DNA of 64,000 nt from an uncultured Enterobacteriaceae bacterium (GCA_964356325.1 CAYHHL010000006.1:6536-70535), one strand, 5' to 3'; positions 17,853-19,030 are shown, counted from the first letter of the stretch. Numbers and translations: made by a program. Notes: generated by a model not told the origin, from the sequence alone.

Positions 17853-18004
17853 GGCGGTTGTCAGGCGCCGTTGCAACCCCAAGGAGTATCATGCAGGATC
17901 CGTACGGCCACCGCTGGTCCATGTCGTCCGAGCATAGCGACAAGAAGCCTGTCACCGAGAGCGACGAGTATCGCAAGCGTGCGGAGACGCGGTACCCGAC
18001 TTAG

Positions 18005-18132
18005 CCGAAGCCGGAGCCGGAGCCGGAGCCGGAGCCGGAGCCGGAGCCGGGGCCGGAACCGGGGCCGGAGCCGGAGCCGGAGCCGGAGCCGGAGCCGGAA
18101 CCGGAACCGCGGCCGGAGCCGAAGCCGCGCTG
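18005..18132. repeat. (GCCGGA)n hexanucleotide microsatellite, ~21 units with GGGGCC and GGAACC variants
   Basis: Read directly from the sequence. It encodes (SR)n, (GS)n or (RL)n depending on frame, which explains three low-complexity track ORFs. Confidence 0.9.
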
Positions 18133-18302
18133 GATCGGCTTGCATAGGCGGCGGGGGCACTGCCACCCGGCGGGGCCGCCAACCCGACGCATTGCACATC
18201 AGCGTCGAACCGCGACGTCCTCCAACACATAGCAGCCATGTCACCGTCGCCGAATCGATCCCCGCCCCGCTGGGTTACGAACACCTCTGCGGACGGCGCG
18301 AC

Positions 18303-18521
18303 CTAAAGATCCTCCGGTCGCAACCCCGTGTTCCGGGCGAGCCGCGCCATCATCTTCGGCCCGATCTCCTCACCGTCGTGGAAGGCCCACACAACGTCCA
18401 GCCAGGCTTCCCGCCGCAGAATCTGGTGCGAGCCACCGCCACGACCTTCGACGCGCGCCCATCCCAGACGCAGCAGCGCCGCCAAGACGCGTTTCGCCTT
18501 GCACGCTGGCCAGACACTCAT
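18303..18521 (-). CDS. hicA: HicA-family toxin (mRNA interferase)
   Basis: KAKRVLAALLRLGWARVEGRGGGSHQILRREAWLDVVWAFHDGEEIGPKMMARLARNTGL matches the HicA pattern (GSH...H..EIG). Its ATG overlaps the hicB stop (ATGA). Confidence 0.75.
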   Translation of the reverse strand: MSVWPACKAKRVLAALLRLGWARVEGRGGGSHQILRREAWLDVVWAFHDGEEIGPKMMARLARNTGLRPEDL

Positions 18522-18730
18522 GCAGCACGCTTGGCCAGGGAGAATGTCACAGACGTCAGGCGCGCGGAGTGTTCGTGCTCGAGCCGATCCGCCATCACGC
18601 GCAGTGCCAGCGCCTGCACCTGCGCTATCGCGGCCGCGCGCGTTGTGCCGTAGACCAGAACGCCAGCCAACTCTGGGATCTCGGCGATCCAGCGGCCGTC
18701 TTCCTCGCGTTCCAACTCTATGTGCAGCAT
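18518..18730 (-). CDS. hicB: HicB-family antitoxin (UPF0150-like)
   Basis: MLHIELEREEDGRWIAEIPELAGVLVYGTTRAAAIAQVQALALRVMADRLEHE fits the HicB N-terminal fold. A start at M25 of the track ORF (18730) is assumed. Confidence 0.65.
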   Translation of the reverse strand: MLHIELEREEDGRWIAEIPELAGVLVYGTTRAAAIAQVQALALRVMADRLEHEHSARLTSVTFSLAKRAA

Positions 18731-18809
18731 GTTGCCTCCAGAACGCCTGGGATGATCATGTGGACGCGGGTGCCGGGTGTCAACACCCACATGCATCCGC
18801 ATGGCCGAA

Positions 18810-19030
18810 GCCGACTGGCGGCCCCGAAGGCAGCGGCGTCATCGACGGCGGCGGTCGTGTTTACGGCTACCAGGACCCGTACGTGTGCGACCGCCATGGT
18901 CTGAGATGTACTTCCGCGCTCAGGCCACATTCGCCTGGAAATGCAAGCGTATCACCCGGCTGACCAGACGCCGATTACCGTGCTGACCGAGCAGGCGATG
19001 GCTCAGGTTCCGGCCAAGGGTTGAGCCGGA
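18810..19030 (+). pseudogene. Degenerate duplicate of the 3' end of the GMC oxidoreductase gene (compare 17685-17855)
   Basis: The DNA reads ...GGCCCCGAAGGCAGCGGCGTCATCGACGGCGGCGGTCGTGTTTACGGCTACCAGG...GATTACCGTGCTGACCGAGCAGGCGATGGCTCAGGTTCCGGCCAAGGGTTGAG. This is ~75-80% identical to the end of the 16230-17852 gene, out of frame, and has no start. Confidence 0.6.

Follow-up and report, generated by a model that had tools for sequence, protein, structure and literature searches.

The tract between positions 17853 and 19030 of the window (the whole 64-kb stretch of DNA analysed here) is probably a non-mobile scar, that is, the remnant of a second homologue of the adjoining GMC-family oxidoreductase gene (a paralogue in tandem or an allele that was displaced), which holds a nested hicBA toxin-antitoxin module. 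The evidence comes from the anatomy of the tract, from the divergence between the resident gene and the fragments of the second copy, and from the sharp boundaries and purifying selection that set the hicBA module apart from its surroundings.

Results

Layout of the tract and the intact GMC gene

The components of the tract that had been described in an initial annotation of this DNA were all recovered: a 37-codon ORF with an AAGGAG Shine-Dalgarno sequence, a hexanucleotide microsatellite, hicB and hicA on the opposite strand and, downstream of the intact GMC gene, a degenerate copy of its 3' end (Table 1). The stop codon of the GMC gene occupies positions 17850-17852, both by reading of the sequence and in the ORF listing, and the start is fixed by a database protein of 540 amino acids (P0001) that is 99% identical to the product. 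This product scores 57 bits against Pfam GMC_oxred_C and 35.9 bits against GMC_oxred_N, and its 636 bits against the NCBIfam model CholsOxChoxAB lie under that model's cutoff of 850. GC3 of the gene is 0.87. From its stop codon to the first block of the second copy there are 308 nt, filled by the orphan ORF and the array. The GC content is 0.63-0.73 across the tract versus 0.63-0.70 in the flanks, with neither a compositional anomaly nor an island signature. No Rfam family was found between 17500 and 20000 at E≤1. The ORFs called across the tract differ between gene callers and are probably spurious.

Table 1. Features of the tract and its immediate surroundings (positions are those of the window).
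Feature	Position	Strand	Evidence or match
GMC-family (cholesterol-oxidase-like) oxidoreductase gene, intact, 540 aa	16230..17852	+	Pfam, NCBIfam, database protein
orf37, orphan 37-codon ORF	17891..18004	+	Sequence reading
(GCCGGA)n array, period 6, about 20.8 units	18003..18127		TRF score 187
Block Z', second GMC copy fragment, LPPGGAANPT, residues 433-442	18161..18188	+	25/28 versus 17527-17554
Spacer between Z' and hicBA module, 112 nt	18189..18300		Without copy elsewhere
hicBA module (promoter, hicB, hicA), 483 bp	18301..18783	-	381/483 to L100, gap-free
hicA toxin gene, 72 aa	18303..18521	-	Pfam PF07927
hicB antitoxin gene, 70 aa, single domain	18518..18730	-	AlphaFold model, Foldseek
hicBA promoter, sigma-70-like, TTGACA-17 nt-CATGAT	18755..18783	-	10/12 match
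Block A', second GMC copy fragment, GPEGSGVIDGGGRVYGYQDPYVCD, residues 486-509	18819..18890	+	65/72 versus 17684-17755
Filler, 81 nt in place of the gene's 44 nt	18891..18971		Without similarity to 17756-17799
Block C', last 17 codons and stop (19022-19024) of second GMC copy	18972..19029	+	51/58 versus 17800-17857
Fragment copied from Rieske gene, 37 nt	19045..19081	+	35/37 versus 24727-24763, E 7e-9
Terminator-like hairpin with T-run	19142..19162	+	Promoter/terminator scan

The terminator-like hairpin is the first of its kind found 3' of either GMC stop codon; it trails the fragmentary stop and not the intact one. Its fold has a z-score of only -1.7.

A second GMC copy in three collinear blocks

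The whole GMC gene was scanned, as ungapped 28-mers, against both strands of the window. Exactly three regions match it at 24 or more of the 28 positions, and these regions (blocks Z', A' and C') follow each other in gene order on the strand of the resident gene. They preserve codons 433-443, 486-509 and 524 to the stop. BLAST retrieves block A' with an E value of 8e-21 and block C' with one of 3e-13; block Z' is recovered by a repeat finder and also by tblastn, the latter at 10/11 identity and in the frame of block A'. The hicBA module sits between Z' and A', with a GMC-derived block flanking it on either side. Since Z' lies beyond hicBA and is collinear with A' and C', the toxin-antitoxin pair is nested in the second copy rather than bounded by a duplication, as the initial annotation had it. 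The degenerate copy of about 220 bp placed by that annotation at 18810-19030 is real but discontinuous: it consists of 18819-18890 and 18972-19029, separated by 81 nt of unrelated filler. Nor can the repeats be a target sequence duplicated by the insertion itself, as had been proposed, given that the copies differ by 10-14%, that one of them is interrupted and frameshifted and that the supposed left repeat is the intact gene.

The filler imposes a +1 frameshift between A' and C', the 5' 1.3 kb of the second copy are wholly absent, and block A' carries G to D and L to P replacements at residues invariant in five orthologues; together with the division into three ordered blocks, these are lesions expected of a decayed paralogue. 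The possibility that the sequences between blocks are heavily mutated GMC DNA was considered and discarded. Five stretches were scored against the corresponding segments of the GMC gene, namely the intervals of 112, 35 and 81 nt, the 33 nt upstream of Z' and the sequence past the second stop; all of their alignment scores fell within the null distribution obtained with random window segments, and the 112-nt spacer, in particular, has no significant similarity to the 129 nt that separate the Z and A segments in the gene (p=0.18). No copies of these stretches were found elsewhere in the window or in the other loci fetched.

The fragment and the resident gene share a lineage-specific SGVIDGG motif, the position of the stop codon (which is different in the orthologues L002 and L097) and a TGAG-CGG tail. 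These shared states identify the second copy as a paralogue or as an allele derived from a closely related lineage. Against such an origin weigh the absence of the entire 5' 1.3 kb from the putative second gene and the shortness of Z', which, at only 28 nt, could instead be a separate piece of filler comparable to the Rieske fragment (see below).

Age and divergence of the two copies

All that is comparable of the second copy amounts to 156 codon-aligned nt from the three blocks. Over these, 22 positions distinguish the fragment from the resident gene (85.9% nucleotide identity) and 23 distinguish the resident gene (85.3%) from its nearest sampled orthologue, L002, whose amino acid identity overall is 86%; fragment and L002 differ at 30. 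The near equality of the first two counts indicates that the split between the copies is old, roughly as deep as the separation of the resident gene from that of another MAG lineage, and such an old split implies that the second copy is not the by-product of a recent insertion.

The 22 differences between fragment and resident gene comprise 14 synonymous and 8 nonsynonymous changes, at 40 synonymous and 116 nonsynonymous sites. This split is incompatible with purely neutral divergence (P=0.0002) and marginally so with a duplication after which one copy decays at once (P=0.016). When the changes were polarised with the orthologues, five synonymous and six nonsynonymous ones were assigned to the branch of the fragment, two synonymous ones to that of the resident gene, and nine could not be assigned. 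The fragment branch carries, among others, G to D, L to P, T to P and Y to H replacements at residues that do not vary among five orthologues. The synonymous bias suggests that the second homologue was functional during part of its history and was broken up thereafter, small as the sample is: the comparison is limited to 156 nt, and the changes on the fragment branch, taken alone, agree with neutrality (P=0.13). The 14:8 bias fits a paralogue that was formerly functional, or a displaced allele, and so comes close to the decayed tandem paralogue that the initial annotation had itself named as the alternative to an insertion scar.

A neighbourhood rich in partial duplicates

Gene-poor sequence runs on beyond block C' to position 19960 and contains further gene fragments. 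Among its features are the piece copied from a Rieske gene located 5.7 kb away, a perfect palindrome with a 13-bp stem and a mini-paralogue, with an internal deletion, of the adjacent Cys-rich gene. Five of the 16 non-self dispersed repeats of the window fall within 17.7-21.4 kb, a neighbourhood that collects partial duplicates; this is in keeping with the scar interpretation.

It could be argued, from such surroundings, that a complete second GMC gene never existed and that the repair of one or more breaks, through template switching or through end joining with filler synthesis, patched the tract with short pieces of nearby genes, among them the GMC blocks, the Rieske piece and the Cys-rich pieces. 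The GMC blocks are short (28-72 nt) and sharp-edged, with unrelated sequence between them; the 37-nt Rieske fragment is situated 20 nt past block C' and comes from 5.7 kb away; and dispersed short repeats are concentrated in the tract. We consider this origin quite unlikely, however, as the GMC blocks retain the order and the strand of the gene, two of them share a frame, and a divergence of 10-14% with synonymous bias is unexpected for copies that never coded. The Cys-rich pieces, too, form a coherent, internally deleted paralogue and not random filler. A broader version of the idea, in which the entire 2.1-kb tract (17853-19960) arose as a mosaic through template-switching or end-joining repair and captured hicBA in the process, appears very unlikely. 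The pieces drawn from genes up to 6 kb away would then be the three GMC blocks, the 37-nt Rieske segment and the two Cys-rich segments, joined to unrelated filler, and the hairpin-forming array may have been seeded at a junction. If true, the tract would preserve, in a bacterial chromosome, a natural trace of multi-template repair mediated by microhomology.

The hicBA module

Whatever the origin of the GMC fragments, the DNA lodged between Z' and A' has a history of its own. The 483-bp module is 79% identical (381/483), without gaps, to the hicBA segment of an unrelated contig, L100. The homology spans the interval from the -35 hexamer TTGACA (18783) to position 18301, two bases beyond the hicA stop codon, and ends there on both sides; in L100, an HNH gene directly adjoins hicBA. 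The closest relatives of the HicA protein (85-86% amino acid identity) also lie in unrelated contexts. Neither hicA nor hicB is present at any of 94 other related GMC loci. These data agree with the initial annotation in treating hicBA as incoming DNA, and support the view of an independently acquired module. An association with known mobile elements, proposed there as a check, was not found: searches of plasmid and phage collections gave no match to hicBA at the DNA or the protein level.

HicA toxins are ribosome-independent RNases whose catalytic histidine is masked by the N-terminal domain of HicB. The HicA protein of the tract scores 34.8 bits against Pfam HicA_toxin (PF07927; gathering score 27), over profile positions 2-58 of 58. 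At E≤1e-5 it has 2687 homologues, all annotated as PF07927, mostly 65-75% identical and scattered over many phyla. Its Gly-x-His motif, G30-S31-H32, is kept in the L100 homologue, and H32 aligns with the His of the GGH triplet of 1whz; the catalytic His of this motif is His23/24 of the E. coli, B. pseudomallei and S. meliloti HicA proteins (PMC11594946).

HicB is less readily recognized. It remains below the sequence threshold of Pfam UPF0150 (16.4 bits versus 27.3), hits PHROG HicB-like families with E values of 0.019 and 0.068, has no match in NCBIfam and gives chance-level matches only in a direct sequence search of the PDB. Its AlphaFold (AF2) single-sequence model, with a pLDDT of 87.5, has a beta-beta-beta-alpha-beta topology, and the PDB entries ranked 1 to 7 by Foldseek are all HicB-like, among them TTHA1013 (1wv8), 2yzt, 3k6q and B. 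pseudomallei HicB (6g1c and 6g1n), with probabilities of 0.87-0.99, TM scores of up to 0.68 and E values of 0.07-0.3. The model thus predicts the partial RNase H-like fold of HicB N-terminal domains. The protein terminates at residue 70 after this single fold, without an HTH, RHH or other DNA-binding domain. Lack of the DNA-binding domain and the hicB-hicA gene order are both common variants (PMC11594946).

The two genes overlap by the ATGA sequence at 18518-18521, and the same pair is conserved in L100. The promoter-like site upstream of hicB is the best in the region; both of its hexamers are kept in L100, and a palindrome, ATGATCAT, overlies the -10 hexamer. Omega values of 0.097 (hicB) and 0.089 (hicA) indicate that the pair has been retained by selection, unlike the surrounding GMC fragments, and hicBA is likely to be the sole part of the tract that is working.

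Relatives of the locus and signs of mobility

Searches with the GMC protein in genome and metagenome collections and among 5.8 billion proteins returned only contigs of the same strain (at least 99% identity) and orthologues at 86% amino acid identity or less. Among these there was no empty site, of the kind that the initial annotation had proposed to look for, and no relative close enough to show the ancestral locus. Over the stretches that align, four same-strain contigs (L053, L054, L055 and L096) share 98-100% identity with the window, and they have the same arrangement. An apparent break in the GMC gene of L053 was dismissed as an assembly artefact, the scaffold being interrupted there by a gap of 100 N with 55 nt of overlap. 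The nearest orthologues (73-86% amino acid identity) are single-copy within ±6 kb and non-syntenic with the window locus. Among the 94 related loci, more than one match to the GMC C-terminus within ±6 kb was found in same-strain contigs only, a weak test in view of the non-synteny of the other relatives. That a tandem GMC paralogue is seen nowhere else, the nearest orthologues being single-copy and non-syntenic, speaks against the interpretation of the tract as a scar of such a paralogue.

Direct repeats of a gene's 3' end around extra DNA are the classic layout left by integration at that site. Accordingly, the tract might be the remnant of an integrative element, or of a Campbell-type or homology-facilitated insertion, in which a foreign GMC-like 3' end recombined into the resident one, the native end was displaced downstream, where it has been decaying, and hicBA stabilized the insert. 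The GMC 3'-end repeats fit this layout, hicBA is clearly acquired, and the divergence of the two copies, similar to that between orthologues of separate lineages, is what a foreign origin of one copy would predict. The terminator-like hairpin, moreover, follows the fragmentary copy as though this were the original gene end, an arrangement that was counted for the scar interpretation as well. Still, we hold such an event to be unlikely. As the initial annotation had noted, no integrase or transposase is visible, and the gene calls between -7 and +8 kb include neither of these nor any recombinase. The longest exact run common to the two copies in the aligned blocks is about 18 nt. The displaced copy is in three blocks, with hicBA inside rather than beside it; the 308 nt from the intact stop to Z' have no element-like content; and the absence of both a compositional anomaly and plasmid or phage matches (see above) points the same way. 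Transposition finds no better footing: the GMC repeats, 28-72 nt long and 10-12% diverged, do not abut the hicBA module as the target-site duplications of a transposon or IS element would, and among the 25 longest inverted-repeat pairs listed there is none whose two arms coincide with the ends of the module or of the tract.

The hexanucleotide array and orf37

The remaining occupants of the tract are orf37 and the array. The Shine-Dalgarno sequence of orf37 (17880-17885) is 5 nt ahead of the ATG, and GC3 of the ORF is 0.84, but the antisense frame uses the same third positions. The ORF has no match in Pfam, NCBIfam or PHROG, and among 5.8 billion proteins it matches itself only. The initial annotation had noted a DPYGHRWS-like end and a possible gene remnant; the more specific reading as the C-terminal remnant of a VOC/glyoxalase-type gene (DPYGHRW) finds no support in these searches. 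Another candidate, an inverted fragment of the GMC N-terminus on the minus strand (GSGFG...RWPxGS), was likewise rejected. It scores 52, a value reached by 1 of 300 shuffles; the GSGFG part is a degenerate array unit that recurs at the other end of the array, and when it is left out the score drops to background. The ORF represents a small gene confined to the lineage or else a remnant, and is treated here as an unverified orphan.

The array matches its consensus at 88%, with 13 of 20 units being perfect GCCGGA; a three-unit search allowing up to two mismatches gave 17 matches versus 0.01 expected. It is placed exactly between two stop codons, the TAG of orf37 and, on the minus strand, the TAA of a (GS)n ORF. 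The CCGG at the core of every unit is self-complementary, and a single strand of the array folds through CCGG pairing into a long hairpin with interruptions (-39 kcal/mol). Hairpins of this kind promote slippage. The array measures 124 nt (about 20.7 units) in the window, 124 nt in L053 and 52 nt (8.7 units) in L054; its interior differs between L053 and the window. The L055 contig starts within the array, and L096 stops 14 nt before it, within orf37. These differences are suggestive only of a length polymorphism, the assemblies being short-read and of low coverage (2-4.5x).

An unstable array so placed invites comparison with a contingency (phase-variation) switch that would act on orf37, on hicBA or on read-through from the GMC gene. 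Variation among same-strain assemblies (8.7 versus 20.7 units, and interior variants), the exact fit of the array between two stop codons, one from an ORF on each strand, and the stable slipped hairpin could all be cited in its favour. Yet a change in the number of 6-nt units leaves the reading frame unshifted. Moreover, the array is outside any supported gene and any promoter spacer, about 630 nt from the hicBA promoter, the only promoter-like site, and a 124-nt repeat exceeds the assembly k-mer length, so that at 2-4.5x coverage the length differences may be artefacts. A regulatory switch is hence most improbable.

Discussion

The data are best accommodated by a sequence of events in which the second GMC homologue, once a gene in its own right, would have been reduced to three short collinear blocks while indels replaced all of the sequence between them. 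A 483-bp hicBA segment with its own promoter would have landed between the first and the second block, and the orphan ORF and the unstable hexanucleotide array would have come to occupy the 308 nt between the GMC stop codon and Z'. In the module as it stands, hicB and hicA are presumably transcribed from the TTGACA/CATGAT promoter and coupled in translation through the ATGA overlap.

The tract is best annotated as the fragment of a GMC pseudogene in which a hicBA pair is nested, rather than as a mobile element or a target-duplication scar. The 483 bp that carry a promoter and two overlapping genes provide a clean example of how compact a transferable toxin-antitoxin unit can be. The hexanucleotide array, if variable in length, could serve to mark strains of the uncultured bacterium from which the DNA derives.

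The module has the hallmarks of the type II HicAB/HicBA toxin-antitoxin systems (reviewed in PMC11594946 and PMC2701414). It consists of two overlapping genes in one operon; HicA exceeds the Pfam gathering score and keeps the Gly-x-His motif; the HicB model matches N-terminal domains of HicB from B. pseudomallei and E. coli and of proteins of the TTHA1013 type; and the HicA family is scattered over phyla in the manner expected of a horizontally mobile module. It departs from the reference arrangement in that the antitoxin gene comes first and in that the HicB sequence falls under the Pfam thresholds.

Bacterial VNTR and contingency loci resemble the array in its length (about 21 units), its apparent length polymorphism and the self-pairing CCGG core of each unit; unlike in those loci, the hexanucleotide unit keeps the frame and the array lies outside a verified ORF or promoter spacer. 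The attL/attR duplications formed at gene 3' ends have in common with the tract a direct 3'-end repeat, extra DNA between the repeats and an intact upstream copy. Here, however, there is neither an integrase nor an identical core, the repeat is fragmented with the cargo inside it, and the insert is about 1 kb, as opposed to tens of kb. A further parallel is with the unitary or duplicated pseudogene remnants that accompany functional paralogues in large bacterial genomes. The fragments share with these the strand and order of the resident gene, the frameshift, the truncation and the radical substitutions, as well as the selfish DNA inserted within; they differ in that only three short blocks remain, the sequence between them being replaced rather than mutated, and in that no relative with an intact second copy was found. 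The tract is an ordinary genomic scar and not a new kind of mobile element.

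Possible transcription downstream of the GMC oxidoreductase gene

On the plus strand, no terminator-like hairpin with a T-run follows the stop codon of the intact GMC-family oxidoreductase gene, and its transcripts may therefore continue in antisense across hicBA, the toxin-antitoxin module nested in the fragmentary second GMC copy. The sole plus-strand hairpin of this type lies at 19142-19162, 120 nt 3' of the fragmentary copy's stop. A perfect palindrome with a 13-bp stem (GGGTCACTGTATC...GATACAGTGACCC) occupies 19207-19238 in a gene-poor tract; its DNA fold has a z of -3.0, and it may serve as a binding site for a protein or as a terminator. 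Shortly 3' of the fragmentary GMC stop, 37 nt at 19045-19081 are identical at 35 positions to 24727-24763, part of a Rieske iron-sulfur gene (see table). This stretch forms the C-terminus of a 215-aa ORF on the minus strand (19040-19687), which is probably spurious.

In a contig of the same strain (L053), the GMC gene calls appear fragmented because a 100-N scaffold gap (9101-9200, corresponding approximately to 17422-17476 of the window) and a flanking 55-nt duplicated overlap fall within the gene. This was judged an assembly artefact, and a real disruption of the gene in L053 was rejected.

Antisense reading and repeats

The minus-strand translation of 17880-18020, GSGFG*VGYRVSARLRYSSLSVTGFLSLCSDDMDQRWPYGS, bears a weak likeness to the GMC N-terminal Rossmann segment; among 300 shuffles, one attained its score of 52. 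GMC homology is not claimed for this segment since a degenerate unit of the (GCCGGA)n array accounts for most of the similarity. Elsewhere in the window lies a second, short GCCGGA repeat, oppositely oriented, which codes for an (AG)n run within the C-terminal tail of a minus-strand ORF (37211-38020). Immediately downstream of a Cys-rich gene of the secreted type, also on the minus strand, lies a mini-paralogue of it with an internal deletion; the pair occupies 19697-20119 and 19960-21357. The two share 66% amino acid identity between 19706-19888 and 19966-20148, and 87% nucleotide identity between 19886-19955 and 21297-21366.

Repeats and related features of the window
Feature	Coordinates	Strand	Remarks
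Tandem repeat, 126-nt unit	4-392		left window edge; 3.1 copies, 74% matches
Rieske iron-sulfur gene	24638-25174	minus	contains 24727-24763, 5.7 kb from the 19045-19081 copy
Paralogous segments	31334-32222 and 32678-33569		~890 nt each, 71% identical, 1.3 kb apart
Second GCCGGA repeat	37240-37266		4.5 units
Tandem repeat, 21-nt unit	63883-64000		continues beyond right window edge; 5.6 copies, 91% matches

A palindrome at the hicBA promoter

At the hicBA promoter, the -10 hexamer is overlapped by the palindrome ATGATCAT (18755-18768). This makes a candidate operator, even though HicB here lacks a DNA-binding domain. The palindrome is partially conserved (ATGATCA) in L100, an unrelated contig that carries a homologous hicBA module.
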